A DNA stretch of 64,000 bases from Moniliella sp. 'wahieum' (Eukaryota): positions 1 to 64,000 of the forward strand of contig RSEE01000060.1 of NCBI GenBank assembly GCA_003971905.1. Direction: 5' to 3'. A program made the position numbers and the translations under genes. Under the pieces are notes generated by a model. The model was not told the origin of the DNA and ran no database searches. It saw only the letters and a program-made list of their open reading frames with translations. How positions within the stretch are numbered: the stretch's first letter is position 1; each line of letters opens with the position of its first letter. Positions 521 through 64,000 of the stretch are shown here, piece after piece.

Positions 521-1680
521 CGTGGCGATGTGTGCAAAGAAGGTGGCGGTGGCAGATCAGACGAGGGGGCGAGGCGACGAGGTATAGTCGGGGCCAGCGC
601 TGAGCTGAGGCGGGACGAAGAGAAGGGAACAAGTAAGGCAGGCGGGGCAGGCGAGGAGGCAGTTGTAAGATGCTAAGACGCACGAACGCCCTGTTGCGCA
701 TCGCATTGGCAGTGCGCCCCTGCGCCTCGGCCGGGTGCAAGGGATTGGCGTCGATGGGCTAGGCACAGGCAGAGCGTCTGCTGGGGGGGGGTGGGGCACG
801 GCGTCTGTGGCCCACCCTGCAGCAGCTCTGCGGCAGGGCGATCGAAAGCAGTGCGTCGCCTTCGGCAGCACGGCTGAGCCTCAGCAGCACGCCTGTGCGC
901 AGCAGCCACGGCAGCAGCCACCGGCAGCAGCCACCGGCAGTGCAGCAGCAGCAGCCCCCCGGCAGCCACCCCGCAGCAGCGCCCCCGGTTTAGCTAGTTC
1001 ACTATAGCGCACACCAACCATCGATCGGCGTCATCGATCATCGACCACCGACCATCGTCGTCCGACAGTGGCCCCACGGCCTCCGACGCCCGTCCCCGAC
1101 GCTGAGCTGACTAGTGACTAGTGACTTGCCACTGGGGTCGCTGCAAGGCCACCGCCAGCGGCTGCACTGGGTCAGCCATATTCGTCTCTCCACGAGCTAG
1201 CGAGAGGGATGCAGGATGGATGGGATGCCCGCATGATGCATGATGCACATGATGCATGATGGTTTGGAACTGAATATTAGCGAGAACCCGCTGCAGAGCG
1301 CTGCGCCGCGTGGTAAGCCCAGAGCGCACAGTCTGTCCATGTGACAGCGTAGAGCACGAGTCGAGTCACTGTCACTTGCCACTCGTCCCTGGTGCCCTAG
1401 ACACCAGCTCACTAGGCTCACTCGCCGAGCCACGGCGTGGTCGGTGTCACGTGCCACGCGCTGGAAGTTTCGGGCTGAGGTAAGCATGCATGCGCAAGGC
1501 AGGACGCGTGCGGCGGCGGCTGGCCACTTTGAAACATCCAGCAGGAAGAGGCGCGTGGCTAGCGGCCAGCTGCCAGCGGCCAGTTGCAAATTGCAGGGTG
1601 GAAGTTGGACGCGGCAAGTGGCCCAGTCAGCCAACCTCCGTCGCGAGCCCCAGCTTCCCCCCCCCCACCACTCTCGCCGC

Positions 1681-3690
1681 ATGGCCACCCACCCGAACCC
1701 ACCGACGACCAGGGCCTTCCCCTCTGGGGCCGAGGTGCGTTCCCTGTCCCCGCACCCCCCTCCCCGCGCCCGCCTAACCCCCCTCTCTCCAGCGTTGCTC
1801 TGCGGTGCGACCGACTTTGGCAATGTCGGCCGCAAAGCCAAGCCCGTCGCGTCCACCAAGGGCCCCGCGTATCCCGACCTGTCGTCCGTCCACATTCTCC
1901 GCAGCCTATCCAACGTCCGCATTTCCAAGATCCGCACCAGCCACTCCTCCGCCCACGTCGTCTTTCTCTCCGTCGAAGGAAACGCGTTTGTGCTGGGCCG
2001 CAATGAGCATGGCCAACTGGGCTTCAAGCCCTCCCAGGCCCCGGCCGCTGCGTCGGGCAAGCGGGGCAATCAGGACGTGTATGCCGGTGCGGCTATCCAT
2101 ACGCCGGCGAAACTGAGGAGAAAGGACTTTGACCCACCATTCCTGCCGGCGCGGACGGGGACATTGTCGAGGCGGCCACCGGACGACACCACACTCTCCT
2201 TGTCACTCGCAGTGGCCAGCTCTACACTGCCGGCCAGGGAAACGTGGGACAGGTGCGTAGGCGGGATGTGATGAGAGCAAGGAATGCGATCCTGCGGCCG
2301 TGCAGAGACTGACCTCTTTTTCTTTTTGCTTGTTCAGCTCGGTCGGTCGCGCGGTCAGCAAGGATCAGTTCAGTTTACTCGGATTACTGCCGCGCCATTT
2401 GTCAAGGAGAAGGATCCGGTGGTGCAAGTGTCGGCGGGGGTTGACTTTTCGTTGGTACTTACTGCTTCAGGAAAGGGTACGCCCCCCCCCCGTTTCTCCT
2501 CTCCCTCGCGCCTGGCTGGCACGTGCGACAACAGGAGGAACATGAGAAACTGACATGTCTGTAGTGTACTCGTTGGATCGATGGAGAGCCGGCAGCTGGG
2601 AAATGGAACGTCGGGAGAGTACATTGTGCAAGCGGGCCGGACCGCGTTTGGAGAGAGGAGTGAGCCCGGGTTGATCGAAGCCTTGGCTGGGGAGAAGGTG
2701 ATCCAAGTTGCGTGTGGCCAGCACCATGCCATTGCGCTGACCGAGCGAGGCATTCCGTACGTCTGGGGGGCCGGCGGGTATGGTCGTCTCGGCTTAGGAG
2801 ACGGACACGATGCCAACCCGACGGCCGTTCGGCACTTGATCGGGACAACGACAAGCTCAAGGCGAGAAAGGTGATTGCTGGTCCGACAGCTTCGGTTGTG
2901 ATTGATGGACAACAACAGTTCTGGCTCACTGGCAAGTGGAAAATCACTGGCCAAGGCGGCGCAGGTCAATCCAACATGCACTTTAGCTGTACGTTGTTCG
3001 TCGAATGTGGGACTTGTACCCGGGCCACGGAAGATGACTAACGCAGAAAAACCAGATGACCTTGACCTAATGGGAGTCAAGGTCAAAAGTGCCGCTCTGG
3101 GCGGGGGTGACGCTCTTTGTTGTGGCAGAGGATGCCGGTTCGACATCCAAGTATGGCGCGACGATGAACGTGTGCTGGGGTCAGAATGCGACGTATGGCG
3201 AGCTCGGGTTTGGCGAGGGAAGACCAAAGAGCGCCACGCGGCCGCAAGTTGGGAGGCACTGGACAACATTGCGGTTTTGGAAATTGGCGCGTCGTTGGGG
3301 ACCACGTTTATTCTGGCGCGCAACATGGGCGACGCCTATTCCGACCTTCCGCGCTACCCGAGACGATCGAGGTCGAGTCGGATGCGTGCCAAGTGTGTGG
3401 CAAGAACGACGAGGAGGCAGCAGAAGAGAATGGCGACTTGCTCGAGTGCGAGAAATGTGACTTGGCGTATCATCTCAAGTGCTTGGACCCCCCCTGGACG
3501 AGGTGCCAGAGGGGGAATGGCACTGCCCGTGTGCAAGGACCGTGGGCTACGGGAAGTCGGATTTCCTGAGCCGAGCAAAGCCGATGACCCAGATGCGCCT
3601 CTCGTCGACCTCAATGACGCCTCCTCTAGCACCAAGCGACCGGCTAACGGCAGCCCGCGCGTTGCGCCTGCCAAGAAAAGCAAAAAATGA
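1681..3690 (+). CDS. RCC1-repeat (RCC2-like) protein with C-terminal PHD finger
   Basis: RCC1 repeats (GRNEHGQLG, VSAGVDFSLVLTASGK, VACGQHHAIALT..YVWGAGGYGRLGLG). PHD finger CQVC..[30 protein letters not shown]. GT-AG introns at about 1735-1792, 2252-2337, 2477-2563 and 2988-3054; several indels. Confidence 0.85.
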
Positions 3691-5766
3691 TCTCTGCCCC
3701 ACTTTCCTTTTGCGGCTGCCCGAACTGGAAACATGTTGGGGCAGCGTAGTGCCTCCAATCTTACACCACCTAGTCATGAGGCTTGAGTATGCTGCACAGA
3801 ATGGATTGCTTGTCCTGCCATGTCCACCTCGTTCCGCATCATGTAAGAGCCTAAGCGCCTGGCCTTCAACCAAGGGGAACAGGTACAACCAGGTGAGAGG
3901 AAGTGCTCCATCAGACGCGCGGACACATGGCACCGCGCCGCTCTTGGAGCTCAGGCCGACCCTCAGTGCATGTAGATGTGGGTGCCGCTGACGTGGCGGG
4001 AAAGGGGCCGGTGATAGGCCCAAACATCAACCTGCGCCAGATAGACGTTGCGCGCAGACTGGGACGCCGACAACACAGCTGCAGACCCTCCGACGGTATA
4101 TATAGAGATGCTGAAGAATTTGGCTTAGCAAATATGCTCCTCCTGCAATCCCTGGCCGGACGCGCGACTCGCCACGGAGGATCTGGACCCGGCGGAGCAT
4201 GGGCGGGAGTATACATGGGCACCCGTTCCCTGTTCTACGTTTCGCTTGGGCACCAGGGATAAGGTCAACCACAACCCAAAGAGCAGGCTAGGACTAGGGC
4301 ATGTGCTACCGGTTACCCCCCCACCTGATCCCACCAATGGCAGGTAATACCCCGACGAGACGCGCCCTGACAAACGGCTAGGCTTGCGCTGCGTAACCCC
4401 GGTGGGATGTTCGGGCGTGTTCGACGCGATCAACCCCACAGCCTCTGAGTGCGTCTGCCCCGGCTCGCCAGGCCCATGTCGGCCGAAACCTCTGGGAAGA
4501 AAGCGAGACGCCGCTGGTCCGGCTACCAATAAGCTGGAGAAACCGTCGATGATTGCGCCCATCAACAAGCCATTGCGCATCCAGCGAATGCCGCGCCTGT
4601 GCTGCCCTCCAATTGCTCTGCAGGCTAGTACGCAGGGCTGAAGCAGTGGGGTTCTAAGGGGGGGGGCACATTGGGAAAATGCCAACCAGGTATGAACGAT
4701 TTCGTCTCTCGTCCCCCGGAGCAGTTGCACAGACTCGTGTCTAACTGCCTCGAGGTCAGCCCCAGCTTTATCATAGGAACCATGCGCGCCAGCGAGAGCC
4801 GATCTGGCGAACACGATGATCCCGCAGCCATTGCGGTGTTTGAGAGAGAATGCCCCCGCCAATGCGGGACTCAAAAAGAGTCTATAGACTGGCCCGAGCT
4901 GTGAGAGTGACTGGACGCCAGACCGCCTCGGATGTCTGACTAAGTAGTATAGTACCAAGATACACGTCCAAGCCCCCCCCCCGCACGATACCGAGAAGGT
5001 CAAAAAGGATACGGAAACGCAGGAGAGCCGCTTTGGAGGACGAGACCAGGGAGGTTTCAGACAAGATCCAAGCGGTGACAAGGTGCCGGACTAGTATGAT
5101 AGAACAGGCGCAGATTTCTCCTTCCAACTAAGCTGCGTGGGAGTGTGAAGTCCAAGAAAGGGGGTGGTGACAAGCGTATATGCGGGCTCTGTCAAGGGGA
5201 AAGCAGAGAGCGGAGGCAGGACAAAACGACAGCTCACCATTCTTTTGCGAGAACCGATCAAGCCCACAACTCCGCTGTGTGGGAGGCGCAAGGGTATACA
5301 TGTATCGAGCGATGGTGCACCTCAAGCTTACTGAGTCTGCGGAAGCGCTTCAGCACTGACATGGGACCCTCAAGTCGATCCCAAAGAGACGTCAAGACGT
5401 ATATTCGCTAAAACCAATTGTACTGGCCGCGATGAAGAACAAGCCGTTGCGGCCCAGTACGCGAGGCGATGAAGCAAAAATACAAGGCGGCCAAGGGAGA
5501 GGAAGGAATGCCAGTGAGAAATCCAAAGGAAGCATGCCGCGGTTAGCGAGCGGGATGACGAGAGACGGAGGAGCACTGCAGATACACTGCTGGCAGTGGA
5601 AGTCAATGCAATTCAATGTTGTCTCCCGTTTTCCCTTGGCGCACAAAACTGCTGCCCCAGAGGGCCTATTGCACATGCTGGTACCAGCCTGCCAGACCAC
5701 TATGTAGGAAAGCATCTGGCCAAACGAGCTGGCCAGTGGGGAGCAAGGGAATCGCCCGGAGGCAGT

Positions 5767-6596
5767 TTACAGGTTCATAGTCTCCAGCGGCGGCCGAGCT
5801 GTCGGGGCAATCTTGGTGGTGCCCTGCAGTGCGGCAGGCTGGGATGGGGCAGGTGGTGCGGGCGTGGCATGCGCAGCATACACTCCGCCCATGGCCGTTC
5901 GGACTTGGGATATGGTTGGTCCGCCGGTCGACGTGTCCTGGACCAAGTCGAGGCTTAGGCCGGGCATGCCGCCTCCGGGGTGAGCAGCACGTGCGGGCCG
6001 GGCTGCGGGTCAAATGACGGCGGCGGCACAGCCGGCCAGCGTCGGGAGGCGCGACATCCTGGTCTGGATGTGCGGCTTCCTGGTCCGGAAGCGCCAGGGC
6101 CGGAGGGGACGAGGAAGGAGGCGCAGCGAGGCGGTTGAGCGCGGCGACCAGGTCGTCGGCCAGGGTATCTTTTCCGGGGCCTGTTCGGTGGTGGGGGCCC
6201 AGCCGACGGGCGGGCTGCCCGGCGGGGAGATGAGAAAATTCTTTTCGGCCGGCGGGACATGCAGGTGGACATCGTCTTGCAGCGGAGCCCAGACCAGCTC
6301 GTCGCCCGGCTGGCCAAAGTAGACGCGGATTGCGTCGGGAGCGGTGAGTGGCAGACGGTCGAGGCGCGCCTTGGCGCGTGCAGCGTCCTGCGCCGACTCA
6401 AACACCACGATCGCCCGGTGGTGCGGGGCGAGGGGCACGTACCGGCGCAGCGGGCCGTACGCATGCAGCAGGTCCAGCAACGTGCGGCCCAGCTGCGGCG
6501 CAAGGAAAAAGTCGGGCGGGAGACGAGTGAAGATGAGGACGGAGGAAGCAACTACGGGAGCGACGGGAGCGGCCTGCAAGCAACCGGGTCAGCCAT
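5767..6596 (-). CDS. RCN1: Calcipressin / regulator of calcineurin (RCAN family)
   Basis: RRM-like N-terminus (RAIVVFESAQDAARAK), hallmark NFLISPPGSPPVGW, and C-terminal PTARPPL in the 5767-5967 frame. Confidence 0.9.
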
Positions 6597-6772
6597 TTCC
6601 AGGCGCGCAAAAGCCGCAGACATTGTGCTTATTCAACAGACAGGCGCATGCGCGCTGTGGGAGCCCCCGGGGGGGGGGGGCGTACATTAGGGGGGGGGGG
6701 GGAAAAGGGGAAGCGGTACAGCGCAAGAACACTAGTAGGGACGGAAGCGGTGGTCGCGGGGCGGCTCGTTTC

Positions 6773-7440
6773 TTACTTTTCCTGGACCGCCGTCTCCTCC
6801 TCCTGCTCCTCCTGCTCCGGCTCGAGCGGGTCGTCGTCCACGATGCCGCATGGCCCGCCGGCCATGCAGCCCGTTCCGAACGGCCCGAATGCGGCGAGCG
6901 GGTTGTCGGCGGCAGCGGCCGGGGCAGGGAGGAGGGTGGCGGCATACGAAACGGCGTCAAAGGCGTCTTGCAGTGTCGCGTCCGAGTCGGGGGCGACGGT
7001 GACCCACATTTCAGTCAGAGTGCCGGGGCCGTCGTCGTCGTCGTCGTGCTCAGGGGCATCGTCGAGGTGGAGGTAGAGGGCGGGGTGGCGGCGGTGGCGG
7101 CGAGGGGCGGCGGGAGGGAGCGGGTGAGGGCGTGGAGGGGAGGTGATGCCGCTGTGGGCGACGCTGAAGCCGGGGCCGGGGCGGGGAGGAAGCTGAGGGC
7201 GGCGTCGGTGATCCAGAGCTGGCCGGGGCGTGGAGGGGGCGCTGTGGGGGGGGGGTGGGGCGCGAGCGCAGCGCCGGCGAGGGCGGGCGGGGAGGGCGGA
7301 GAGGCGGAGGGGGCAGCGGGCGGGCCAGCGCAGGACGGGCGGCACGCGCTCCAGCGTGGCAGGCGTGGCACCGGCGCTGTGTGCGGCGGCGGCGGGGAGT
7401 GTGGGCGGGGGGCGTGGAGGAGCGCGAGGGAGGGGGGCAT
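6773..7440 (-). CDS. ICln/Lot5 (Voldacs domain) protein
   Basis: TPATLERVPPVLRW..GQLWITDAALSF..GFSVAHSGI(T)LHALTR..ALYLHLDD..LTEMWVT..AFDAVSYAATLLP, then an acidic tail; frameshifted. Confidence 0.7.
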
Positions 7441-7738
7441 GTGGGGGGGGGGGGGTGGGGGGGAGGCAGGCCGCGGCGGAGGCCGCGCAGGGGGCGCAGG
7501 CGGGTGCAATTTCAAACTGCAGCGGGTGGGTGTTGCCGTGTTGGGCAGCCAACAGCCGGAGAGCCGCGGGGGCATGCGCATGGCCTGGGACATGTGATGG
7601 CCTGGGACATGTGACTGCAGTAGACAGTTGAACGTAGATGGCTGACCTCAGCCAGCAGCAGCAGCCGCCTGCCCACCCATGCCCCCTAGGTAGCCCGCCC
7701 CCTGCACCCACCAGCCCCACCCTCCCCTGGATCCCACC

Positions 7739-10568
7739 ATGGCTGCTGCCCCCCGCTCGCCTGGGCGCCCGAGCCCGCCAGCCCCCCGTCCGCTGCATGC
7801 GCTCGCCGCCGACTCCAGCGCCTCCTTCGCCGCCGACTCAGACGCCGACGCCACCTCAGCCACGCCGCCCCCACCACGCCCCACCCCGCGCCCCCTCGCA
7901 CGCCCAGCCCAGCCCGTCTCTCGCCCCCCTCCCCCCCCCCCGACCTCTCCCTCGCACACGCACACGACCCCCCCCCGACCCGCTCAGCACCGCCGCCCGT
8001 GCTGTCGATGCCGCCGCCCTGTTGATCGAGCAGCTGCGCCAGGCCGTCTACACACTCGAGGAAGAGCGCCATCGCTCCGACGCGGCCCCGGCCCACCCCC
8101 CTCCTCCCTCTGCGCCCGAGCCCGACGCCCCGAGCAGGACACACCCCAGCCGGATGCCCCCCCGGCCCACCACCGGCGCAGCCCACGCTCGACACGCTCA
8201 TGATCGAGTTGGATGCCAAGTTGGAGCATACCAACCGCGCCTTTCTGCTGCTCGACACGGCGCTCGAGCGCGCCCGAGGACGACCACGCTTCCTCGTCCC
8301 ACAAGCACGGCCTGACGCTGCACACCTTACCCAGCAGTTCCTCGCTTGCCTCCCTCACCAGCGCAACCAGCTTTGACGACGAACTCTGGGCGGCCGGTGA
8401 CATGTCGAGCGATGCGGCGCTGACGTTGCCGGACACGGCCCTGCGCGGCTCGGGTTCGGCACGCGCAGCCGCAGCGCTCCGGACCCGGGCTGGTGGCTTG
8501 GGCCAAACCTGGTCTCAGCTCCAAGACGAGGTGGAAATGGTGCGGCGCGAGCTGGTGGACGACAAGCAGCAGCGTGCCTTTTCCGGCGTGGTTAGCGCAT
8601 GCGCACGAGCTGATGGACAGTCTGGCACGTGCGTTGGATGCGCAGGATGCCGTGGTGCGCGACTGGCCTCGGTCGAGGCGGCCTGTCTCAGCGCGCTGGC
8701 CGGCACCTCGGACCCGGACCCGGACGACTCGGGCCACACGCTTCTCGACCTCGACACGGCCTTGTCGCGAACCGAGACGTACGGGTGGATCTGCCTCGGT
8801 GGGCCGCAAAACGGACGTGAAGCTTTCGTATATGTGCCCAGCGTTCAGCGCGCGTTTTCCGGATTGGCTGCGATGCTCCACAGCCGCAACACATCCCATG
8901 GCGGCGCGGAGCGCATGCGCCTTGCCGCGGTCGAACGGGAGAAGCTGACGCAACGCACTGCCACCTCGGCCCGGGAACGTCGGAGAGTAGCGCATGCGCA
9001 TCGAGCCGTGGTGCGCAAACTGGCTGCTGCCGCGTCGGTGGATCCGGAACGCGACGGCCTTGGCAGCTGTGCCGCTGCTGCTGCCGACGCAAGCGCGACC
9101 TTTCCAATAGCTTTAGCTCGATCGGCGACCTTAGTTCGTCCGGTACCATCGTCTTTCCCACACCCCTCTTCGCCCACCGAGTCGAGAGGCACACGGACGC
9201 AGCCAGTTCCACGCCCCGCCATAGGGAACGGCGGCTGCCTTCTGGTTCGCGTCGGGTCTGGCCCGAACGGCCGGTCGGCTCACAGTCTTCTTCCTCTCCC
9301 CGGGCGAGGGGAGAGAACGGCCGGGTCCGGAGGTGAATACGCCCAGCTCCCTTGGTCCACGCCGTCCACCTAGGGACCAAGACGGGTCAGTGACGCTTCG
9401 TCGTCGGCCCCACCTAAGCCCCCCCGTGGGATGGAGAAGCGCTCACCGCCCGCTGGAGTACGCAGCCTGGGGCGTAGCGCGCCGCGCGCGCACTTACCCC
9501 GCTCGCATGACTCGGTGGTCAATTTGGCGCGCGCACTGGACCGTCTCGCGCTCGATCCCGAGAGGATCCCCTAGCTCTCCCGCTGCGTTGGCCGCGGGGA
9601 CGGGGCGCGCTGGGTCTATCTCTCACGCGGTCGATCTATGACGATGCGCCGCCCCAGCCGCACTCGGTGCCGCTGCGTGGAGCCAGTCCTGTGTCTTCCA
9701 CCAGTGGCGAGACGGCTACCACAGCCAACGGCGCCCAGTGTCGGGGCGCGTCAGCCGAGCCGCGGGGCAAACGATTGTCGCGCATTCCACGGCTCTCCTC
9801 CAGCCTCGCGCTGGGCAGCCCTTCTCGGCCCGGCTCGGCGCGGCCTCCGTCGGCGCTCAGTTCGCATGGGATGGAAGGTACGCCGCCGGTGGGCAGCATG
9901 CACCTTCCGCGTTCTCCCAGTTCGCTCGGAGCGTCGTCGCACACGCCACGTACGCCACGTTCGCGCGGCCCACCACCGTCGTCGCGCAGCCCAGGCCGCG
10001 CTCTCGGTCCGAGGCGGGCCGCGCACCGTGGCGCAAACCCCCGACCCAGTGATTGCTCAACGCGCCAACGTTTCTGCGTTTTACCCGGGCGTGCGTCGAC
10101 TCGCGCCCAGTCCTGGGCCAGGGAGCCGGCCAGCTGCGGCCAGTGGCGCACGGGGCGAACGTAGTGCGCAACCGGTGTCGGCCCCCCCGGCCGGCCGAGC
10201 AGTACGCGGCCCAGTTCGCGCATGCGCCCGCGTCGCGCATGGATGAGCCAACGTACGGCGAAGGTGTGGGGGGAGCTACGTGCCGAACGCGCTGGACGAT
10301 CTGGATGTGGCAGTCGGGGGTATGCGAATGCGGTCGGGGTGGCGATCGCGGTCTGGAGCCGCCTTTGGGGCGCGGACAGCGCCTGGTCCTGGGGCCAGGC
10401 AAGGAGGCTCATGCGCGGTATGCGCTGGGGGCGTCCGGTCATGTGCAAGATCCTCGAGTTGCATCGGCCGGGCGCCGCGTCAGGACCAAGAACGACGCGC
10501 AAGACCATGGTCCGCGCCGAGGGTTCTGGCAAGACCTCGAGACGTGGCTTCTGACGCGGCTCGAGTGA
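7739..10568 (+). CDS. Kar9-like coiled-coil protein with C-terminal GAS2/GAR microtubule-binding domain
   Basis: WSQLQDEVEMVRRELVDDKQQRAFSGVV..AHELMDSLARALD resembles the fungal Kar9 domain. After a Ser/Pro/Arg-rich linker, YVPNALDDLDVAV..RPVMCKILEL..KTMVRA(G)GFWQDLETWLL matches the GAR motif VMVRVGGGW. Many indels. Confidence 0.65.
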
Positions 10569-11565
10569 TGCGTGATGTTGCTCCGGAGACGGGTGCGACA
10601 GGAGGAAGAGGGAGAAGTGTACCAGCTGCGCTGGATCGTTGTCTGTTCCTTGTCCGTATGTCGTGTCTACCGTGCTCATCTTCTGTCTGCCCGCCTGGCC
10701 AGCGATGGGCCGGGCGGGGTATCTACCACGTCTCGGTGGCCTCTTTCTGTTCTCCCCTTTCGGTCTTTGATGACGATGGCCCCAGGGCGATCTACATGCT
10801 GTACACACCAATAAAGAGACGCGTATGTTGTTGGCGTGCGTGCGGGATGGTGGATGGTGATGTAGCGTGTATAGCTGTAGCTTTTCGCTGTGCATGGCAA
10901 GGCTGAAAGCCGATATCTGAGGTTGACGAGGGCGATGAAGGCGATGAGGAGCATCGTGTTGGACAATGAAGGAAAGCACATGATTGACTGGGGCTTGCTC
11001 CGGCCCGAGAATGGCAAGGCGCCATCTTTAGTCTTCGGACAGGATCGCCTGTACTTGATAACGGCCTGCCCACATGCATGGCTGCGGCCGGCAGACGGGC
11101 AGGACTGATGCGATTGAATACGGAGTGTACTGAGTACTGACTATGATGGGGGCGGGGGCAGAGAGAGTGAGATAGCATGGTGATCGATAGTGCGACACCC
11201 ATCCCCCCACTGGCGCCATGCCGCGTGCAGATCGCATGGTCGATCATGCGGCGCTGCCTGGCATTGCACCGCCGAGGGCACTGGCCCACTGTGCTGGGCT
11301 GGCCAGCAGCGACCTGGCGAGCGCGCAAAGCGAACGTCTAACGCGCTGATATGCACACGGGCATCTGACTTGTGACGGGATGCTACGCCACGAGCCACTG
11401 CTCGGCCCAATCAGCCTGCGTCCTTGGAAACCAGGAGCAGGTCTCGCGCTCGCTGCTGCTTTCGCACGCTCGCGCCTTCCGTCCCATCGCATCGCCCCCA
11501 CCCCCACCACCCCATCTCTCGTCTCTGTCCTCCCTTCGCTATCCCCCCCCACACGCTCAACCTGC

Positions 11566-13470
11566 ATGCGCACCCTCCTTTGTCTCGCGCCGCTGCGTGG
11601 GCGGTGCTCCATGCCCACGCCCACGTCCACACCACACCCACGCCTCCCCCTTCCGCCGCGGCCATCACCCACGCTCTCTCCCCGCGAACCCAGCCACGGC
11701 AAGATCCGTGGGTTCGAGCTCAACACGCCCCGCCGCTGGATGCTGGCCAAGTAGGCTTGTTCCGCCAGTGTCGGCATCAGCTGCTGTACAATTCGTTTGG
11801 TCTCAATTCGAGCCAGCTCAAGACGGGAGCGTGGAGCCCGGAGCTGGTCAGCGACTGTGGCCACCATCACCTGGCGTGGAATTGAACTGGAATTGTCCGG
11901 TACAGTGCGTGTTTTTCCCACCCTATGTTTGTCCTCTGGTGGCTGTGCATTGACCTGAGGTCGCGGTCCATCCTATCCAGGTTCCGGAACACAGTACGAC
12001 CGTCTTGCCTCGATCTACCTTGATGGGGTAGAGCTTTGGCGGCACGACAATCCCGAGCCCACTAAGTGCTGCGTTGTCTGAACACACGCAAGGACGTGAG
12101 CAAGTACTACCATTTGATTGCCAAGAAGGAGAAGGGGAGGTCGTCTTGTCCTTCCCCAACTATGTCAACAACATTGACAATGGGCTGTTGAATGTGACGC
12201 TGGATATTGGGTTCATGTGCCGCGCAACCCGGAGGGGTACACGGGCCCCAGTCCGCTTGTCCACCGCACGGCGCAGCACATTGTGCCCATCTCCTACAAC
12301 TCTACCGACAATGATTCCAAGTTTTCCGTCGGGGGCGACGGCAACCCGCCTTCTGGCAACACCACCATCTCCCTTCCCGCCACACGCGCGCGGCCGTGGT
12401 GGAGATTATGCGTCGGGGACGAACGAAGAAGAGTTTTGGTACACATCGGTCAGTGACGATCTGTACCTCTCTTCTGCCAGCACAGTTGAGAATTTGGGGC
12501 TCTACCCTCATGGGCCAGTGCGAGAGGTGCAGGTGCTGGTGGACAATCGGTTGGCAGGGTTTGCCCAGCCAATGGCGGTCATCTTTACTGGTGGCATCTG
12601 CCCTGGCATGTGAGGGCCCATGGTCTTTTTGGAACGTTCAACCAGCCTACCTATACACTCGATCTGACCCTTTGTGCCCATCCTGGCCGATGGCCACCCG
12701 CACAACGTATCTCTCGCAGTGGTGTCTGCCGAGAAGAACGGGACGATTGATGCGTCGTGGTTCGTCAGTGGCAAACATCCAAGCCACCTCGACCCGTCGG
12801 GCCAGCCTACCACGGGGCACATTGTGCATTACGAGGCGGACGAGCTGCCGTACGGTTCGCTGACGAGCCACTACCGCCATACGGGAAACAACTCGTTTGA
12901 GGACATCATCCAGAGAGCAGCCGCGCACGCTCAAGATCGAAGCGGTGGTCAGACGGGTTCGGATGCACAGGCAAAGCAAACGGATCCGATGGGAGCAGAC
13001 GGCTACCCCTTTGCCAACAACACGGTCACCGACAATGGCAATGCCCAAATCAATGTGGTCAACTCGCAGGGCCATGCGCATTCCTCCCATGGGCCAGCCC
13101 TTCCGTCGTACCGCTGGGAACTGCCCTTGCACGTGACCACGTTCAGCACGGAAACCAGCTTGACAACGAGCGTACACAAGGGGTACGATACCCACCTCGT
13201 CTCCCACGACATCGTCTCGGTCTGCCGGTCTGGACGCACATTCGCACGCGCCAACTCTCCTCGGGCGGGTACGGCATCAACGCACAACAGGAGCTGACTT
13301 CAGTGTATGGCAATGCGAGCCAACACTATGCTTACTCGGATGCCAATCGCAACACGTTTGATCGCACCACGCATGTCTGGGACGTGAACGCCACCACGTC
13401 GGTCACGCACGACCGCGTGGGCGGATCGCTGGCCGTGTATGCGGCGGAGATTGAGCCTCCGTCAGCGTGA
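11566..13470 (+). CDS. Secreted peptide-N4-(N-acetyl-beta-glucosaminyl)asparagine amidase A (PNGase A family)
   Basis: YASGTNEEEFWYT, HGPVREVQVLVDNRLAGFAQPMAVIFTGGI, PTYTLDLTP(F)VPILADGHPHNVSLAVV; hydrophobic N-terminus; frameshifted. Confidence 0.85.
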
Positions 13471-36440: not shown

Positions 36441-36442
36441 GT

Positions 36443-39312: not shown

Positions 39313-42927
<3,615 letters not shown>

Positions 42928-44582: not shown

Positions 44583-45775
<1,193 letters not shown>

Positions 45776-52800: not shown

Positions 52801-53253
52801 ACTTTCTTGTCGTTTACTCTTGTTTTCTTTTCCCTTTTCCTTTTTCTTTTTTTCTCTTCCCTGTTTCCCTATCAATTCTTTCCCTTACTCGCATTATCAT
52901 CTCTTCTGAGGCAGTCAAGCACACAGAGAGAAACTGATTACCCACAATGGGATGAGAACAAAGTGTCAGAGTTGCAACTCGCAGGAGGAGCGCAGGGAGA
53001 GGGGTACCCCCGAAGAAACTGCATTAAGCTGCGGAGGTTGATGCCTACAAAAAAGTGTTTTAGCGTCGTCGATTATTGGGCAAAAAGGGCAGCTACCGTC
53101 GCGGTCGAGCTAGGGGAATTGTAACTGTAGGTTTTGTCCGAATAGCATGACAGGCAGTCGTAGCAGAGAAAAGGGAGTTCGTTTTTGGCATCTCTGTGCG
53201 AGAGACGTTACAATCTGCAATTTGGGGTGAAACTGGTGTTGTGTAACAAAAAA

Positions 53254-53351
53254 TCTCCCCTCTGGGAGTCGAACCCAGGACATTCAGAGCGGAAGGTTTC
53301 TTCCAATAGACCAATTACAATCTGACGCTCTTCCAACTGAGCTAAGGAGAG
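53254..53351 (-). tRNA. tRNA-Tyr(GTA) with a 25-nt intron
   Basis: Acceptor stem CTCTCCT/AGGGGAG with C1:G72 and A73 (eukaryotic Tyr identity). D arm GCTC-AGTTGGAA-GAGC; anticodon stem TCAGA/TCTGA with GTA; intron 53290-53314 at 37/38; T arm CTGGG-TTCGACT-CCCAG; T6 Pol III terminator follows. Confidence 0.93.
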
Positions 53352-53561
53352 GGCTGGGCTTGGGGGTCTCTGGATGGGTAATACTGACTAGTCTTTGTGT
53401 GCACGAATTACTTGACTCGCTCTTCTTTTGGACAGGGAGAACGCTACATTCCTAGTGGACACAAGTCTGTTCATTGATACGCTCACGTTCAAGTTCCCGT
53501 TCACATAAGAAATTGATATGCTCATCTTGTCCTTGTCTCCCCTTTGATTGCAGACCCGCGT

Positions 53562-54434
53562 TGCCACGGGCGGGCGCCGCCAGGGGGCCCGCCCTGGGGT
53601 TTTTGGGGTACAATCCCTTAGGCGACGGTAGTCGACTCACACGGTAGTTCGGGCTTATATGCTGGTTGGTGTGTCCGAGCGGAGCTAGGCGAGGAGAGGC
53701 CTTTGGTGGGCGGCTGCACGTGTGGCAAGGCTTCTTCGTCTGCACCGGCTTGGGCCGTAGTAAACGTGTCTGAAGCCTCCGGGACTTAGGGACGGAAGGA
53801 GGCAGAGGGGGACAAACACTGCCTCAACTGAGACTGGGAATCGACGCGACCAAAGGAGGCTCGCGCGACTGGACTGACGAAGGCTGGAGGACGAGGTCGG
53901 AGGAGATGTCGGACGCTAACAAGAGAGCTGCCTGTACTGGATCAATTGGCTGGAAAACGGGCAGGAGTCGGACAGGATAGGCGAGAGGGTAGACGAGGGG
54001 GTTGAGACGAGAGGGGGACGAGAATTGACGAGAGGATGACGAGAATGGAAGGGGGGGAAAAGATCCCCATCGACCAGGGGTACAGGCAGGATCAAAAGGG
54101 AAACGGATACAAGAGGGGATGTAGAAAGGAAGACACGTCAAAAGCGGGGGTGGTCGCCGCAGGCGCGACCGAGAAAGGAAAAGGAAACGGGGACGGGGCG
54201 ACAGACGTCGCCACGGCACTGGAAGCTCGGTGGCCTTATTCAGGCCGGCCGACTTGGACTTGGGCGGGGGGCGACTATTGCCGCGCAGATGCATGGCCCT
54301 TCGGCCACGATGCTTAATTTAGCCAACCATCATCACACTTGGTTGGCCTGCTGAGCACGCTCTACTGGGCATGTGCGGAGCAGGCGGGCCTTAGCTTGGG
54401 TCGGACCATCTCGTGTCCGCCGCAGCCCGTGACA
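53562..54434 (-). mobile_element. Solo LTR, family 1, copy C
   Basis: Minus strand TGTCAC...GTGGCA, 873 bp, close match to copy B; flanks CGCGT / CGCGG (4 of 5 TSD match). Confidence 0.9.
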
Positions 54435-56684
54435 CGCGGGGTGGACTTCAGGCGGATGGCCCTGCGGTTCGGGAGGCTACACGAAGATCAAGCTTGCTCA
54501 GATTTGTGGGACTGGACGACCCATTTGTGCACACCCTCCTATACCATCCCAAACGTGGAAAGCTAGCATCGTTGGCCGTTAGCACACTCTTTCCGCGATG
54601 ACCCTGTCCAACACGGTCACGACTTGTATTTTCCCTCGACTGTTTGCCAATGCGACTAAAGCGCCCACTTCAGTTCACCAAGCATTGAAGTTCAACGACG
54701 CGCTTTGGCCGAGAGGGAGTGCAGTTTGCCACTGCAGTGACTTTAGTCACACGGGCGCGCGCTGGTTTACTACGCACAAGCCCGATGCGCTGGGTGCTTA
54801 GCTGGGAGCCGATTGGCCCAACAAAAGCAAAGTCTTGGCAATGCGTACAATGCGTAGAGGCGGAGTGGAGTGGCCTGTAGTGTGCTGTGCTCCTCGGTGC
54901 CACCCATGGGTGCAACCAACACTCCTTCGCCTCCAGCTTAGACGAGACCTAGTTTGGCCTTGCGGCCTAGCGCATCCTGTTTACCACCAAGTCTTTGTCG
55001 ATACATTCTCCGCCCTCTACGTACATCAACGGAAAGAACGCACTGGATCCTAGTACACCGGTGCAGGTGAGATGATACCCCGAGGTCAGTGGTGTGGTTC
55101 GTATTGGGTGGGTTATGTGAAGCAATGCGACTGAGACGTGTGTGGGAGTCTCGTGGCGGGAAGCAAGGATGAGTACCCGGCGGGATTCGAACGGAAAGAT
55201 GGCAATCTATCATCAGTGGTACTTGTGTACCCTAGCCACCGCCAAGACGCTTGGCAATGCCGTCGGCGTGCGCGGAAGCGGGTCGCAGTAATCAACATCG
55301 CCTCAGCCCTTTCCGCCCCGGTAGTTGGCGACCTCTGTGCCACTAGGTCGATATGGCGCTACGAGAGCGGGAGACACGGAAGGGCGCATGAACGAGCAGA
55401 TGGGCAAGGCGTCCGGTTCGCTGCTGGAGGCTCGGGATCTGACGTGGAACTACGATTCTTTGCTGTGGTGCAACGGGCGGCTCTCAAGGACTGCCTGTGC
55501 TCCGAAGAGCAGACGAGGACTTTGTATTGGTGGTGGCAGTAGCGGTGGCGGAAGAAATAGAAGTGGAAGTGAGAGTGGAAGTGGAAGTGGAAGTGGAAGC
55601 GATGGTAACGGCGACGACGGGGGTGGGGATGGGGGTTGGGATGAGGACGCGGTATAGTGCTGGCAAGGGCATTTCACCGCCGTTGAATTTTCTACTACCT
55701 TCTCGATCCCGCGGGGGTTGGGCGGTGAGGGGCGTCGCCGTCATCCTGAGCGATGTGTGGGCATGGAGACTGGCCCACCGGCTGCTGGCTAGCATGCATC
55801 CTGCAGAGCGGCGCAGTGCAGAGCGGGGGACGCCAGGGCGCAGGGGCAGTGTCAAGCTGCGCTGGCTTTGGGTTGGAGCGGGACTGCTGCAGACACGCGG
55901 GCTAATTTTGGACGGACGGCCGGTTTGGATTTGGAAGCGATTGAAGCTGGTGGCCGCCGGGCAGGCTCGGGCTCAGCGCAGGGCTGGCCATGGCTGTCGA
56001 CGCTGGGCTGCCTCCATCGCTGCGGCCGGGGGGCGATGGGGGGGCAGCCGCACGCGTCTGGGCAGGCGAGCGCCTACACCAGCCAACACTCCACCCGCGT
56101 CGGTCGGCGGGCGTTCTGTGGCATCTACTACTACTACTATGGATGGCTCAGCTGGCCAGCGCCATATGGCCCCGCCAGAGCGCGCCACCAACCGTCCCTG
56201 CCACCACCTCCATCGCGCCAGAGAGGCGACAGCACCCGGCGTCTGCAGTTCCATCGGGCCGGAGCTCCCGTAGGCGGCATTGAACGTTGAACAAGCCTCG
56301 CGGGCTGCGAGCAGAGATAGGAGAGGCCGTGACGCTGACGCCCGTCACGCGTAGCCGCCCCAGCCGGGGATCGTCTGTTGGATAGCGAATCCCCCAACCT
56401 GCCCTGGGCGGCTGGAGCGCGCTTGTCAGATATACCCGCCTTGCGCCAATCCCCTCGGCCCACTTGCCGCAGTTTTCCCCTCTCTTTTCAGCTCTCTGGC
56501 CCTCGCAGTCTCTCTTGCTTTCCGTCCACCACACCACCCCCTCCCTGTTTCTGCATCGCTTCGTCAAAACAGCACCGTGTATGTCCCCCTCCTTCTCTCC
56601 CCCCTCTCCTGTCCTCCCCTTCTCTGGCTGTGGCTAGGCGCGGCTATGGTCTGCATGTCATGCCCAGACCCGCCGCGGCCATAG

Positions 56685-57327
<643 letters not shown>

Positions 57328-60300
57328 GGCCCCGGCCCTTTTTCCGTACATGCACCAGCCCGTGCATCTCTTTGCCTCTCGCGCTTCTATGTCTCGTCCT
57401 GTTTTTTCCCCCCCCTGCCTCCTCTCCCATTGGATCCGCCTGTCTGCTGCGCCCTAGTTGCCCCGCAGCAACAACTATGACGTGTTTCCTTCCCTCCCTC
57501 GCCTCGTCCTCCAGTCTCGTCTGTTTCCGTGCGCAGGAGGAGCGCGCGTCGCCCTGGCCATCTACACTTCGTCTTCTCTTTCGTACGCGCATTTTGCGGT
57601 GCTGCGCACCACGAGGTAGTTCAGTATAGACATATGTTTAGCCTACAGTGAAAATGGTACGGTGGCCATCTTAGAAAACCCATCGTATTGAACAGAACAG
57701 CAGGCCGGGCGACTTGGCACCTCTCTTTTCAGTTTGCAGCCGTGCGAACTGGCGTTTGGCCCAGGCGTCAGGAGGTACAGCGGGCGAATAGGAGTGGGAA
57801 GCGACGCTTCAAGCTTCAAGCTTGACTTGAAGATTGACTGGACGAGCTTCGTCGATGAGTCGGCCCGGGGCATCCCTGAGATTGATTACGGCCTGTGGAA
57901 CGGTGAACGTCGAAGTTGAACGTTGAAGTTGAATGTTGATCACAGAGATCACCGCTCAGATAGATCATCGATCACCAGTAAGATGGGCCGCAACACTGCC
58001 GCAACAGAGCTGCTGAATCAGCAACGGGCGCCAGTGGCCATATGCGCAGCGCCCCCCAAACGAGCCACGGGTCAGGTCGTCGCGTCGCCCTTCAGTGTTA
58101 TGGGCACATCACGTGACTTGTAGCGCGCATCGTACTAAGGACGAAGATAGAGATACCAGACCGCGTCCTTGTTACACACTGAGGAGATCTTCATCACCTC
58201 CACTACGCCCATACACCTGCTGGAGTTCAGCTAGGGAGTGCTACAGCCCGCAGGAGAGATCAGCTTCAACATGTGCGGGAAGGCAGGGTGGTTAGTTACA
58301 CCAGTCGTGCAATTAAAGCACGCCAAAAGGGAAAGGAGACAGGAAAATAAGAGCAAATCCGTGTGATGAAGCAACCAAAAGGGGTTTGCACAGCTTGTAG
58401 AACGAATCTGGCCAGCTGTTATAGTAAGCAAGCGTTGCAGATCAATTGCGGGAGTGCTGGGGAACTGTAGTAGTAAGTAGCACGAACGTCTCCCACGCCC
58501 CTGCCTCTTCTCCCTACTGCCGTCTCTCTTCCTCTTCCCTTTTCTCCATTCACTCAGTTCACACAACTCTTTCTAACACCAGAAGATTTTGCCGTTATTT
58601 GGGTCGTCCCAGCCGCAAGCATGCGTCTCTCTCCGCGCTGCCGGTGCCCAAAAAACCTGCCTCAGAGAGTGAAGTTCTTACTACCTCCTTTTGAAGAGGA
58701 AAACCGTGAAATGGTCGAACAGTTTTCTTTCAAGTAAAAATGAAGACCACTCGGCTTTGAACACAACTGAGTCGGGTTGAATGCTGACTCTGTTTGCCCT
58801 TCCCGTATAATAGTCATGTTCCGATTCAACCGTCATATTGAGGATCCTATCTACACGCCAGGAAGGGAAGTGTATGCAGCAGACGCGCGTGGGTCCATAG
58901 TGAGAGGTCTGAGTCAGGTCACCGTCAGCGAGCCCTCTTGTCATTTTATTGCTGTAACCCTCAGTGTCACAGGTCTACTTTGCTATGGGAAATGGAGATT
59001 GTACTGCAGAGCTAAATGAAGAACTAGTAGGCTGTAATACGTTACGAAGCCGTATGCCCGTTTGAATTCTTCCGGAACGTGCTGGCCCCATTCTACCCTG
59101 CGTGTGCCGAGCCACGCTGTGTCACTTAATGCCCATGAGCGCGTGAGATGTTGTGGACCGCTGGTGTTCAACCCAACGCTCAGGATTATAACATTTTGTG
59201 GCCAGCAATACCATGCAACGATCTGCGCCCACCTCTCTCACCGGCCCCAAGAGTACGGTTGCCGTTGTTATTGAGATTATCATGGTTCATCTCCCTTCCT
59301 CTTGATCGCCCCCGTATGGTCTCGTTGTGCTTGCTTAAGGATCGATATCCATCAATATTGAAGAACAACTACTTCAGCGCAGACAGACCCCCCGTGACCA
59401 ATGTCAGTGGCAAAAGGGATTTGCTCACACGTCGGCCTAATAACCACACCTTACCCCCTTTCTTCTCAGCGCAACAGAACCGGTCTCCCCGGAAGGCATG
59501 GTTGGTCCTTCTGTGACGGTGAGAATTAGGGGTGTGGACATAGCCTTGCAGGGCGGAACAGAGACCGGAGCCAGGTTTCGGGCGCGGGGACCACAGGTAT
59601 AAGGGCCGAGTCGATGCATCTCCCTTTTCCTAATGCACAGCCCTCGATCTCTCAATAAAGGCCAAGAAGCCAGGTTGAAGAAGGAAGTCGTTATACAATG
59701 TGGTCGATGACCACCTCCCCGCGGGCCAAGACTAGACCAAGTTGTCACACGATTCGTCTCCACTCTCTAAGACGCAGGGGTGTCGTACACTGTGCCAGCG
59801 GCGCGGGACGTTCACACGGTTTGGTAAATCATGGTTGGCGCCGTGTTCGCGCTTATGCTTACGAAGTTCACGTGTACGTGAACTTTTGGTGTAAAGGAGC
59901 CACGGGGAATGTTGATCTTCTCGATGTATAATAGAACAGCTCGATACCTTTGTCGGCCAGCATCATTGACCGAAGCCCCTTCCGTGGTTTCCGCTTTCAC
60001 CGTCACAGAATACAACACCCCTCCATCCGGACGATGGCAGAGGAAACAGGAGATTGGTTTTTTGGTCACATCACGGTAAAAAGCATAGTGAAAGGGGCAG
60101 GCGGCCGGACAGGGCAACAAGCGACCGCGGATGTAAGAAGTGAATGGATGAAGCTTTGAAGCTTCAAGAACAGACAGGGGAGGGTATCACCTCGAATTGG
60201 GCGCTGGGTTGGGTAGCACACCGTCTTGTGATTTACAAAAGGGCATCTCACCGGCAGAAGCAGGGGCCTGGCTGTTGGTCGCACCTATCAGCCATACCTT

Positions 60301-61783
60301 TTTGCACTGCATCTGCGCCTCCGTCGCACCAAAAGGCGGATCGGTATAATGTTCCATGTTCCCCGAGAACAGCTGCCTATGCACAAAAGGTCTCGAGCTG
60401 GGATCTGACATGGATAAGGCGCGCAGAGAAAGGGTTTCTACCTCTCGATGATCATCGACGGTGAGTCTGAATATGGATTCGGTTCTCAGTCGCGCTCTCC
60501 TCCGCGTTCCATGTCACGAGCATCATTCATCACTCTGTTAATTCCATCCATCATTGGTCAAGCGGTTGGGTAATCAAGATGTCTGAATTCCCCAAAAGGG
60601 GGAACGCTGGGGATCCAAAAGCATAACACGTTTGTAGCAAGTCACGTACATAGGCCAGGCACCTTATCGATTATCCTACAACAAGCCCCTCTTACACGCA
60701 TCGCTGACCTCCGAAACCTATACGGTATCCAAATCCCGGGCCGGCCCAATCCCTGTCTCTTCCAGATGTGGCTGATCATGAGCACAAGGCCATGAGACGG
60801 TGCATGAAGCTTGAAGCTTGAAGCTTGAAGCTTGAAGCCTGAGGGCCTGAGACTTAGACCTCAGGGTATGTGAGTGCAGTGTTGAGGCGCTGAGGCCTCG
60901 CTTCAAAGTTTAACCGAACGTTCAAGCTGTGAACGTTGAGGTCAAAACCACCACGTTCCTCATTACATGATCCGTTGCCCTCCGTCTGTCGAGGTTCTCT
61001 AACACCCAGTACTTTGGGTTCCCTCCGGTCCATCTCATGTTGCTCCTGACAATTGGGCTGCAACCAGACGGGCAAAAGACTGAGTACTGAGTAGTAGTAG
61101 GTGGAAAAGACTACTAAACCGCAAGTAGGAGAACTGAGGTGAACCCGGTGAACAAAGAATCGAGCTGGAAAAGGAGGTGTCGGAGGCCATGGAGAGAGAG
61201 AAGACAGGAGAGAGAAGCGGATTCAGAGTCAAAAAGGAAGATACAGGGCGAGGACATTGAAGACAGTAGCCTGTGTCAGAGCGTCGCAAGGGAGAGGAGA
61301 CACTGTGTCATCTCTGCACCACAACCAATATGCTCTCCCCGGGTGCATCAGGTGCATCCTCTGGTATTAGTTCTTCGAGGCCTAAGGCCTAAGACGTGAC
61401 ATCATCATCGCGTGGCGGTTTCAGCCTGTGCTCGTAGGGGTCCTGGCATCCAAAACCTCCAAGCTCAAAGCTAAGCTCCACAAGCACCAAGCGCCAAGCT
61501 CCAAACTCCAAACTCCAAACTCCAATAAGCTCCGAGAGTTCAAGCTCCAATAATAAGAAGCTCCGAGAACTCCACAAGACCCCGCATCCTCAGCTGCATG
61601 CATCTAATTTATCTGTGCATGTGACATGTGACATCGCACAATCCGCCGCCAGCATGAAGCTTCTGAGCTGGAGCAGGAAAGACGCATGTGCATGTTACAT
61701 CACATATCACATGTCACATGTCAGGCCTGCCGGGAAAGTTTCCGTGTCATGTTATTTTTATGGTTCGCTGCTATGACTGCAGT

Positions 61784-62012
61784 GTGGACGCGCGTGGACA
61801 GTGGACCGTGGACGGTGGACCGTGGACGGTGGACCGTGGACGCTGGACGGTGGACGGTGGACCGTGGACGGTGGACCGTGGACGGTGGACCGTGGACGGT
61901 GGACCGTGGACGGTGGACCGTGGACGGTGGACCGTGGACGGTGGACCGTGGACGGTGGACCGTGGACGGTGGACCGTGGACGGTGGACCGTGGACGGTGG
62001 ACCGTGGACGGT
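61784..62012. repeat. 14-bp tandem repeat (GTGGACCGTGGACG)n, made of two alternating heptamers
   Basis: About 15 near-perfect units read directly. Confidence 0.95.
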
Positions 62013-63179
62013 AACCGGGGTAACCGGTTATACGTATAACCCGTAACGCGTAAACGTTAAATGGTGGAGGGCTAGTACGTTTTGTGACATGTGACATCTA
62101 AAAGTACACCGAGTCGTGTGTACACCACAGCGATTGTGGGTTTGAGAAGGACCGTTACACGCTACGCGTTACATCATACCATACCGGGTTACTCGGTCAC
62201 ATGTTGCACGCTACATGGATGTTCCGAGTCACTATCGCCTGTGGGCACACCGAAGCACCCAGATGCATCCAGAGGCTGTGAAGGGCACGATTGGGGGGGG
62301 GGAAAGTGGGAGACACTCGCTATGAGTCTCGATCCATTTAGATCTTAGAGAAAGTGTGCATATACGTACCATAGCGTAGAATAGCATGATGCATGGGTCA
62401 GATGAAGCTTGGAGCTTGAAGCTCTTGAAGCTTGAAGCTTGAAGGCCGGAATAGTGGCACAATAATCTGAAGCTTTTGAAGCTTGAAGAAGCTTGAAGAT
62501 GTTTTGCCGCCGTGTGATAAAGTGTTTCTGCCACAAGCATATGTGGATTGGTTATCTCGATCATCGATTATCGACTAATCTACCATGCACAACTGCACGA
62601 TGTATAGGCACGAGATCGTTGAACGTTGACACATTGACCGTTGATACGTTGATCGACCTAGGAAGAGAAATATATTGGACCCATGTGGATTCAACATATA
62701 TTCAACACGGCTGAAGTTCAACGTTGTTCAGCCTTGAAAACGTACGTTCAACGTTCAACGTTCAACGTTCAACATTCGCTGTTCACTATAGTTACCTAGT
62801 TACCGGTTACCGGCACATGCACAACTTGAACAGGTCCTTTATGACGGAGAAGACATAACGTTCACGACGTTCATGTCATGATGAACAAGTTCATCGATTC
62901 ATTTTCATCGAATGCATCGATCCTCGCTCAGGCGCTCAGCTGAGCGCTGCTCGTCGAGTGATTATCGAGAGTATCGATAAACCATCTGCGTCGTTAACGT
63001 CATTAACGTCATTAATCATCGACCTCTTGAATATGGTGGACTGTGGCGAGCGAGGCTCTCGGGAATATTAGTCGCAGTCACTAGTCACATGTCACATGTC
63101 ACATGTCACACCTGGAAAGCTTATTAAAGTTGGTATCTGTTGGGACCCGTGGTCCCGTACTTAGGCCAAGGCGCCTCAT

Positions 63180-63491
63180 CACCCTTCACCCCTGATTTGT
63201 CCTCCGAAGCCTCCACGTGTACTCAGGCTTGTCTGAATCCCTGTCTCTAGTGTGGCACAAGGCTTAGACCGCAACCACCACCATCGCGATTGCATTGCTC
63301 TACATTTCCAGAGGTTCTTCACCCAATCCCTTGGGTTCCTCCGGTCTTACAGTATCGCCGTCGATGGCCCCCCACAACGAATGGTTTTTGAACACGTTGA
63401 ACAACGATTCGATCAACTGATCAACGTGGTCAACGTCGAGTCGCACGTTGTCCGACGGATGGGTGAGAGGTTCAGCCGCTAGCCAAGGCAT
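63180..63491 (-). pseudogene. Possible decayed Ty1/Copia-type gag N-terminal fragment
   Basis: VFKNHSLWGAIDGDTVRPEEP..*SNAIAMVVVAV*..DSDKPEYTWRL resembles the LWxxIDG..P..A..W pattern of Copia gag; in-frame stops. Confidence 0.35.
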
Positions 63492-64000
63492 GGTTACTCC
63501 GATTACTCCGGTTACTAGTTACTCCGGTCTAGTTACCAGTTCCATGTTGAAGCCTACGGCCTACCTATACCAGGAGATACTATGGTTACAAGTGCCAAGT
63601 AGGTACTTGTCTGTTGCTAGCGTTTACTGGTTACCTTACCATTACCAGCCTGTTGCCGGAGATGGATTATCGATTATCGAGATAGGTATATCCTGGAATC
63701 GACGGGCATCGATGATCGATGGTCGGTGATCCGGTGATCCGCGACTGTCTGAGATCTGAACCATTGGTGATCGATGATCGATGATCGATGATCTTGTTTG
63801 GGGATGCTCGATGCCAATGCCCCCCAATGCCCCGCCTGCCCGTCTTCTCCCGAGCAGGCAGAGGATGGCAGGTGCGCCGAGCGCTGTGGGCCGAACGGGC
63901 GCCTGCCCGTGCTACATACGCTGCCCTCCGTTGTACGTTGTACGCTACGCAAGTGGACCGTGGAGTGGCCGTACAGCAGAGCTAGTAGCGCCCAGACACG

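Follow-up and report, generated by a model that had tools for sequence, protein, structure and literature searches.

Heptamer repeats in the non-coding DNA of a Moniliella genome as probable excision footprints of an EnSpm/CMCT-type transposon

The stretch of DNA analysed here (the window) comprises positions 1 to 64,000 of contig RSEE01000060.1 (C60:1-64000) of Moniliella sp. 'wahieum', whose assembly (GCA_003971905.1) amounts to 69.5 Mb in 223 contigs. The genes of the window are eukaryotic (actin, Hsp88, histone H3), and its non-coding DNA carries tandem repeats with a 7-bp period that are built around T-N-A cores. These repeats are the subject of this study, and our data suggest that they are probably scars, that is, footprints left by the excision of a cut-and-paste transposon from the EnSpm/CMCT clade; they would have arisen by insertion, excision with hairpin formation at the flanks and joining at TNA, and would have grown into arrays by renewed hits and slippage. 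Fifty arrays of the form TNA-palindrome-TNA with 13 different cores were found in the window, and none of them (0/50) overlaps the 16.5 kb of coding sequence (CDS), whose bounds were set by hand from Pfam matches and reading; the preliminary description of this DNA had likewise noticed none in coding sequence.

The genome context matters for what follows. Hsp88 is present in six copies that form three pairs, with identities of 93-95% within and 79-85% between pairs, and its best named relatives are from Ustilaginomycotina (Tilletiaria anomala, 67%). The six copies in three pairs suggest three subgenomes with two haplotypes each, and the genome is therefore probably a three-subgenome hybrid or polyploid of which both haplotypes were assembled. 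The haplotype partner of the window is contig C58, which differs by 3.6% substitutions. The genome sample comprised 60 x 10 kb (600 kb) drawn from 44 contigs, and in total about 1.4% of the genome was examined by script.

To quantify the repeats, we counted overlapping matches of P-N-P, meaning a 6-bp palindrome, one spacer base, and the same palindrome again. Palindromes that begin with A and end with T account for 23 of the 24 strict matches in the window (8 distinct palindromes), the sole other one being GCGCGC at 9477, and for 118 of the 124 matches in the 600-kb sample, where about 0.6 would be expected. The enrichment is confined to the 1-base spacer, as spacers of 0 and 2-5 bases gave only 1-5 A..T matches each. 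Runs of period 7 numbered 458 in the genome sample, as compared to 50 in local dinucleotide shuffles, and 202 of the 458 belong to the TNA-palindrome class. A single 20-mer repeat query had 1042 matches genome-wide, and its reversed control had none. The repeats are thus real and enriched over shuffled DNA, and the preference for A..T palindromes and the use of at least 11 of the 16 possible A..T palindromes (11/16 in the sampled P-N-P matches), both of which had been noted in the preliminary description, are borne out. Its examples at 1110, 14238, 25325, 25577-25603, 27190, 43458, 43779, 46232, 60807-60833, 62750 and 63770 were found as given, whereas those at ~24081, ~43132, 61083 and ~62802 are period-7 repeats that contain only a single complete palindrome each. 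The spacer had been thought to be any base, but N is mostly G or C (236/292 scars), and the commonest core is the bZIP-like TGA/TCA.

More detailed inspection changed the view of the geometry. In all 30 triples of the 600-kb sample, N is repeated directly, and among 565 TNA-palindrome-TNA occurrences the direct N prevails (471, as compared to 47 with inverted N). The formerly proposed alternation of dyads between palindrome centres and T-N-A junctions is therefore refuted, as direct N repeats are combined with a mirrored 2-base filler. The minimal unit is y'x'TNA xy y'x'TNA z1z2, a 5-base duplication plus two bases that are the mirror image of those with which the right copy begins. Such mirrored filler is specific to the core: in 734 kb, it accompanied 144/207 of the 5-base duplications at TNA, 2/78 at ANT, 3/75 at CNG and 6/106 at GNC. 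Runs most often end with two bases on one side and zero on the other, in a sample that includes four loci overlapping the window; the counts of this set with four duplicate loci were used for phase and core lists only. Where flanks were informative, three classes with a net gain of 7, 8 or 9 bp could be recognized, in which zero, one or two further bases are kept (216, 34 and 30 cases; expected 4.0, 0.5 and 0.2; control counts for the latter two classes 3-11 and 4-7). The duplicated block is at most a 7-mer centred on TNA, and the mirror begins at its border. This mirror is even-centred (292/2423), and the odd-centred forms known from hAT elements are about at chance (1/1034 and 15/1134). An inverted-N class (28, as compared to 2.9 expected) and two-sided arrays that need one event from each end (17, as compared to 1.6-3.9) are likewise enriched. 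We agree with the earlier view that a rule rather than a single sequence is at work, and that neither plain slippage nor one factor motif suffices.

Scars occur at about 35 per 100 kb (~209 per 600 kb), which extrapolates to some 20,000-24,000 in the 69.5-Mb assembly, and all three subgenome pairs carry the signature. They are clustered, as 127/369 have a neighbour within 100 bp, and re-hits of one site are 4-11 times more frequent than chance. In other fungi, where 514 kb around 55 Hsp88 loci (some of them near-duplicates) were examined, its frequency was at chance level (3/45), as compared to 209/296 for the signature here. In the comparison of the two haplotypes, indel sizes peak at 7 bp (45, as compared to 30 at 6 and 17 at 8 bp), and of 97 scar rows, 50 are identical, 9 have another number of units, 15 were scored as unscarred in the other haplotype (on reading, about 6-7 of these are clean) and 23 are unclear. 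Overall, there are about 6-9 clean scarred/unscarred pairs per 3760 substitutions, or roughly one clean new scar per 400-600 substitutions, and some pairs contain new mirror bases, as in CCTAACA versus CCTAAGG CCTAACA or in GCTAACC versus GCTAAGC GCTAACC. Large haplotype indels were also considered as transposon cases and rejected, as they are elements with long terminal repeats (LTRs) and 5-bp duplications or are unclear; this includes a 1.39-kb indel that at first sight resembled a 7-bp case.

A candidate source was found in a family of elements with terminal inverted repeats (TIRs). Two short seed words gave six genome matches, four of which had a common TIR, and the TIR pattern built from these recovered 14 ends in the genome, with nnTNAnn at the flank in 14/14 and no control matches. 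TNA was also present in 7/7 target sites that are independent of the search pattern. Five whole copies, four of 4.9-5.0 kb and one of 378 bp, are bordered by exact 7-bp duplications. The ends are CTCACTG..CAGTGAG (CT..AG), the TIR alignment extends over 78-97 bp, and tandem subterminal repeats are present. Copies differ from each other by 0.13-0.57% substitutions, with 82 private and 4 shared gap columns, and given the 3.6% between haplotypes they therefore moved after the haplotype split. One site was seen in three states: a plain GATCAAG (C60), GATGATC GATCAAG (C58), and GATGATC GATGAAG beside a TIR end (C23, C8), the last via rearrangement. The element carries two scars of the same rule inside itself (L106-L109). 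When ~0.94 Mb were searched by script for elements that combine TIRs with duplications of 7-9 bp, only arrays and one fold-back were returned. CATCAAC was rejected as a Plavaka-like terminus, as both element ends show it to be a direct duplication.

The gene of the long copies looks EnSpm/CMCT-like but defective, as judged by its sequence. Two weak protein matches lead to Tnp2 (PF02992) proteins of Tilletia, and a hidden Markov model (HMM) of Tilletia Tnp2 gave 25-27 bits at the H..H/E motif in 4/4 copies; CRPC stands for the C(2)C motif, and SVHNTLHW and the last E align to the HMM. A word-index search with the frame of the element gave no match. Genome searches for the MULE domain and for PIF (PF13359) gave no matches, and those for the hAT dimerisation domain (PF05699) and the KDZ domain gave none either, which is weak evidence, as their controls also matched nowhere. 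Two Tnp2 genes without TIRs exist, one at C17:557k with a homeolog on C62, and one at C34:515k. The gene on C34 (L096:3700-6300; C34:513.7-516.3k, minus strand) has apparently kept the D, D and E positions in the alignment; it lies 9 kb from a TIR copy and is a candidate helper. The C17 gene (L093/L095, C17:555.9-558.9k) and its C62 homeolog are fixed in one subgenome pair, and paralogs at C17:410k and C65:367k, in the other pair, have the same start and 3' part but miss the middle. Between haplotypes, the core of the C17 gene shows 12/14/15 substitutions by codon position, without third-position bias; domestication of this gene is thus unsupported, as there is no sign of purifying selection in the core. 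A bias of 3/4/13 in L095:6859-7224 is a hint of a kept C-terminal domain.

EnSpm/CMCT transposases are relatives of Transib and RAG1, and the following course of events would account for the scars. Insertion at nnTNAnn duplicates these 7 bp, as is seen with the extant family. Excision would then occur flush with the element ends, and each flank would be sealed as a hairpin in a RAG/Transib-like manner, which we infer because the mirror is even-centred and starts exactly at the duplication border. A host nuclease would open the hairpin a few bases past its tip, leaving a short mirrored tail, whose T may pair with the A of the TNA in the other flank, and after trimming of two bases the ends would be joined. 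A founder y'x'TNAz1z2 would thereby be converted to y'x'TNA xy y'x'TNAz1z2, the observed product with its net gain of 7 bp. Joining at T instead could give the rarer inverted-N class, and less trimming could give the +8 and +9 classes. Arrays and clusters would then result from slippage of the new unit and from further insertions at this site or close to it. Scars presumably persist in non-coding DNA because a gain of 7 bp breaks reading frames. With an assumed fungal mutation rate, we estimate about 1e-5 scar events per genome per generation, which is within ordinary transposon activity, and a modest hopping rate would suffice for the scar numbers if it was long-lasting. The preliminary description had listed hairpin opening after transposon excision among several ideas, and the even-centred mirror together with the 7-bp TNA duplications of the TIR family now make it the leading one. 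It had also held that tracing of all units to one transposon family would speak against the pattern, which does not apply here, since the units are footprints and not element sequence. As to the source, we slightly favour an undescribed EnSpm-related lineage with CT..AG ends and a 7-bp nnTNAnn target, which would have stayed active at very low copy number throughout the history of the three subgenome pairs, and whose more than 20,000 footprints would have given rise to almost half of the heptamer tandem repeats in the genome.

Several observations weigh against this interpretation. Pfam found no transposase match in 15 frames of the element copies, and no intact transposase was seen among the family copies: the second catalytic D reads E in 4/4 copies, the first D was not found, and a ~240-bp solo-LTR-like insert, a repeat with many genome copies, lies near the first-D region in all five long copies. 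Because of these three defects, our data suggest that the TIR copies move in trans. Fewer than 20 family ends were seen, as compared to more than 20,000 scars. Unequal flanks occur at the C11 and C38 ends, and the flanks of weaker end-like matches at C23 and C8 lack TNA. Family targets are narrower than scars, with A/T at position 2 in 10/11 sites (4 of the 11 picked by the pattern) versus 134/292, and other or older families must therefore have contributed. We found no site at which one haplotype holds the element and the other a canonical scar, and the one homeologous site read, that of the C23 element on C8, proved to be rearranged and ambiguous. At TNA, plain 7-bp duplications show no enrichment (20, as compared to 51-78 for other cores), and the 7-bp ceiling on the duplication comes from small numbers (filler at duplications of 8, 9 and 10 bp in 0/2, 0/3 and 1/3). 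Finally, gain and loss at the haplotype pairs are not polarised, the other four Hsp88 copies forming two further pairs whose non-coding DNA is too distant to polarise indels.

Hairpins at the flanks are known for hAT, Transib, RAG and Muta1 (PMC5499845), and RAG hairpins are opened mainly at +2, by Artemis (PMC2175297). The scars resemble P nucleotides of RAG coding joints and Transib products in the even-centred mirror of mostly two bases and in end joining, with the flank hairpin being our assumption here (PMC2175297, PMC5499845). They differ in that the flanks are a 7-bp duplication and the position of the joint seems to be set by the TNA core, with the result that one +7 product dominates genome-wide; as in a footprint, the target duplication is kept on both sides of the joint (5-7 bp on TNA, and the 7-mer of the TIR family). 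Footprints of Ac/Ds and hAT elements likewise keep the duplication and show mirrored bases and microhomology (PMC5873905, PMC12730594), and hAT7 of rusts makes 7-bp duplications (PMC5873905, PMC12730594), but Ac/Ds mirrors are odd-centred, on the complement of the border base (PMC5873905), a class that is at chance in the scars, and hAT7 is dismissed on grounds of geometry. With the fungal EnSpm/CMCT elements (Tilletia Tnp2, CNEST, ESTA, Plavaka), the TIR family shares the C(2)C, H..H and E motifs, TIRs with subterminal repeats and a length of ~5 kb (PMC12730594, PMC12810828), whereas CMCT members have mostly CA..TG ends and 2-5 bp duplications (PMC12730594) and CNEST has TA duplications (PMC12810828), in contrast to the CT..AG ends and the 7-bp duplication found here. 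PIF/Harbinger elements, which had been suggested as a source, have a T-N-A-like target core, but they make 3-bp TWA duplications, and mPing excision was precise in 109/110 cases (PMC2836001); since the scars are imprecise, with duplications of up to 7 bp and N mostly G/C, and PF13359 is without a match, this source can be dismissed. We found no account of such a genome-wide scar class in the literature, with supplements outside the search (a 7-bp EnSpm family might be listed in Data S1 or the target-site duplication figure of PMC12730594), and no paper on how EnSpm/CMCT transposases cut the second strand, which is not proof of absence.

Of the alternatives, the one that survives best is cutting without an inserted element, in which hairpins would arise at nnTNAnn through cleavage by some other nuclease or by a transposase that is free or domesticated, for example by crosswise joining of sister-chromatid cuts. 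The more than 1000-fold excess of scars over elements, the frequent re-hits and the two TIR-less Tnp2 genes, one with D, D and E positions apparently kept, are in line with it, but we regard it as unlikely, as the duplication requires a staggered insertion step, the C17 gene has no third-position bias, and the estimated event rate fits ordinary transposon activity. Still less probable is a replication fold-back, by which a 3' end frays and folds back on T-N-A, copies two of its own bases and resumes at the branch point to leave a 7-nt hairpin insertion. No element would then be needed to explain the main +7 class, the direct N or the two-sided arrays, but stems of other lengths and other loops would be expected, and these are not enriched. 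Nor can fold-back yield the +8 and +9 classes (34 and 30 cases), whose filler comes after z1 or z1z2. It also leaves the exact 7-mer duplication of the TIR family and the absence of scars in other fungi unexplained, and nick-and-foldback at a TNA loop, as formerly considered, does not explain the 6- and 7-bp duplication classes. That the arrays are selected binding sites of a protein that reads spaced TNA half-sites is very improbable: they do lie in promoters and other non-coding DNA, with 0/50 in coding sequence, and the commonest core is bZIP-like, but each core is a copy of its local flank, taken from one side only, all 16 cores are used, and the arrays vary freely between haplotypes; some of them may have been co-opted later. 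A long-read or amplification artefact or ordinary microsatellite slippage is hardly credible, for although errors of 1-2 bp are frequent in the assembly (2.2 kb of Hsp88 contain 26 indel events) and unit differences of 14 and 21 bp suggest that slippage acts on existing arrays, half of the scar rows are unchanged in the separately assembled haplotype, arrays avoid coding sequence, and slippage cannot write mirror bases that the founder lacks, whereas haplotype pairs gain such bases.

The scar sites of the window and the TIR copies are listed below; within the window (1..64000) no TIR-family ends were found. Other repeats and rearrangements were also seen. A long array of 14-bp period at 61790-62012 (GTGGACC/GTGGACG, with 7-bp subunits and a TGGA core) departs from the TNA rule and is mostly missing in C58. 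A 214-bp solo LTR with a 5-bp duplication lies at 63138-63351, and a 5.5-kb full-length member of its family is present at C58 109.2-114.8k. A dispersed repeat of ~95 bp at 26074-26168, with more than 25 genome matches and tRNA-like box motifs, is a possible short interspersed element or tRNA pseudogene. The C58 haplotype lacks 3.9 kb with a short-chain dehydrogenase gene (33399-37275), and C60:81.1-83.4k and C58:73.8-82.9k differ by local inversions and greatly in length. Inverted arms of 3.45 kb, 99.4% alike and 2.4 kb apart, at C23:100001-109288 (L039) are either a true fold-back or an assembly artefact.

Table 1. Scar sites in the window and copies of the TIR family (positions without a contig refer to the window).
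Feature	Position	Strand	Remarks
AGTCACT x2 + founder AGTCAGC	1106..1126	-	scar array; divergent promoter
GATGATC x2 + founder GATGAGG	14234..14254	+	scar array
Unscarred TGTAACC	16100..16125	+	haplotype comparison; C58: TGTAACA TGTAACC
Unscarred GCTAACC	18730..18750	+	haplotype comparison; C58: GCTAAGC GCTAACC, clean +7 pair
Single scar GCTCAGC GCTCACG	24083..24096	+	common to C58
AAGCTT-T array	25325..25341	+	
Two-sided: CATGATG x3, founder CATGATT, then AATGATT	25573..25608	+	one event per end; C58 has 84-bp gap
Single scar GATGATC GATGACA	26302..26315	-	common to C58
Single scar TGTGACA TGTGATG	27100..27113	+	common to C58
GCTCAGC array	43132..43147	+	C58 one unit fewer
TGTGACA array	43453..43471	+	
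CCTTAGG array	43779..43796	+	
AGTGACT x2 + founder AGTGATG	46228..46248	-	between actin and cyclophilin genes
CTTCAAG array, then inverted-N unit	57806..57823	+	
CTTCAAG x4 + founder CTTCATG	60803..60837	-	C58 one unit fewer
ACTGAGT array	61079..61093	+	
Dense cluster of 12 arrays, differing cores	62336..63793	.	1.5 kb non-coding
GTTCAAC x4	62744..62773	+	21 bp absent from C58
Two-sided: AGTCACT, founder AGTCACA, TGTCACA units	63076..63110	+	
GATCATC x3 + founder GATCACC	63766..63793	-	
TIR-family long copy	C23:154552-159519		
TIR-family long copy	C34:500340-505284		
TIR-family long copy	C35:43991-48846		
TIR-family long copy	C29:72158-77127		
TIR-family long copy	C11:228241-233089		two different nnTNAnn flanks
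TIR-family mini copy	C20:546811-547188		378 bp

As a rule, transposon footprints are scarce and heterogeneous, and they can no longer be recognized after the element has left. The stereotyped scars, at ~35 per 100 kb, would serve in a fungus as a dated map of where elements inserted, which targets they chose, how they hopped locally and how hairpins were repaired, and they bear on how EnSpm/CMCT transposases cut the second strand. They also advise caution, as strong intergenic 'motifs' can be mutational scars. If our interpretation is true, a whole class of microsatellites in promoters can start from transposon footprints, which would be a birth of microsatellites by a route other than slippage, and the genome would be a large natural record of EnSpm-type transposases cutting with RAG-like geometry.

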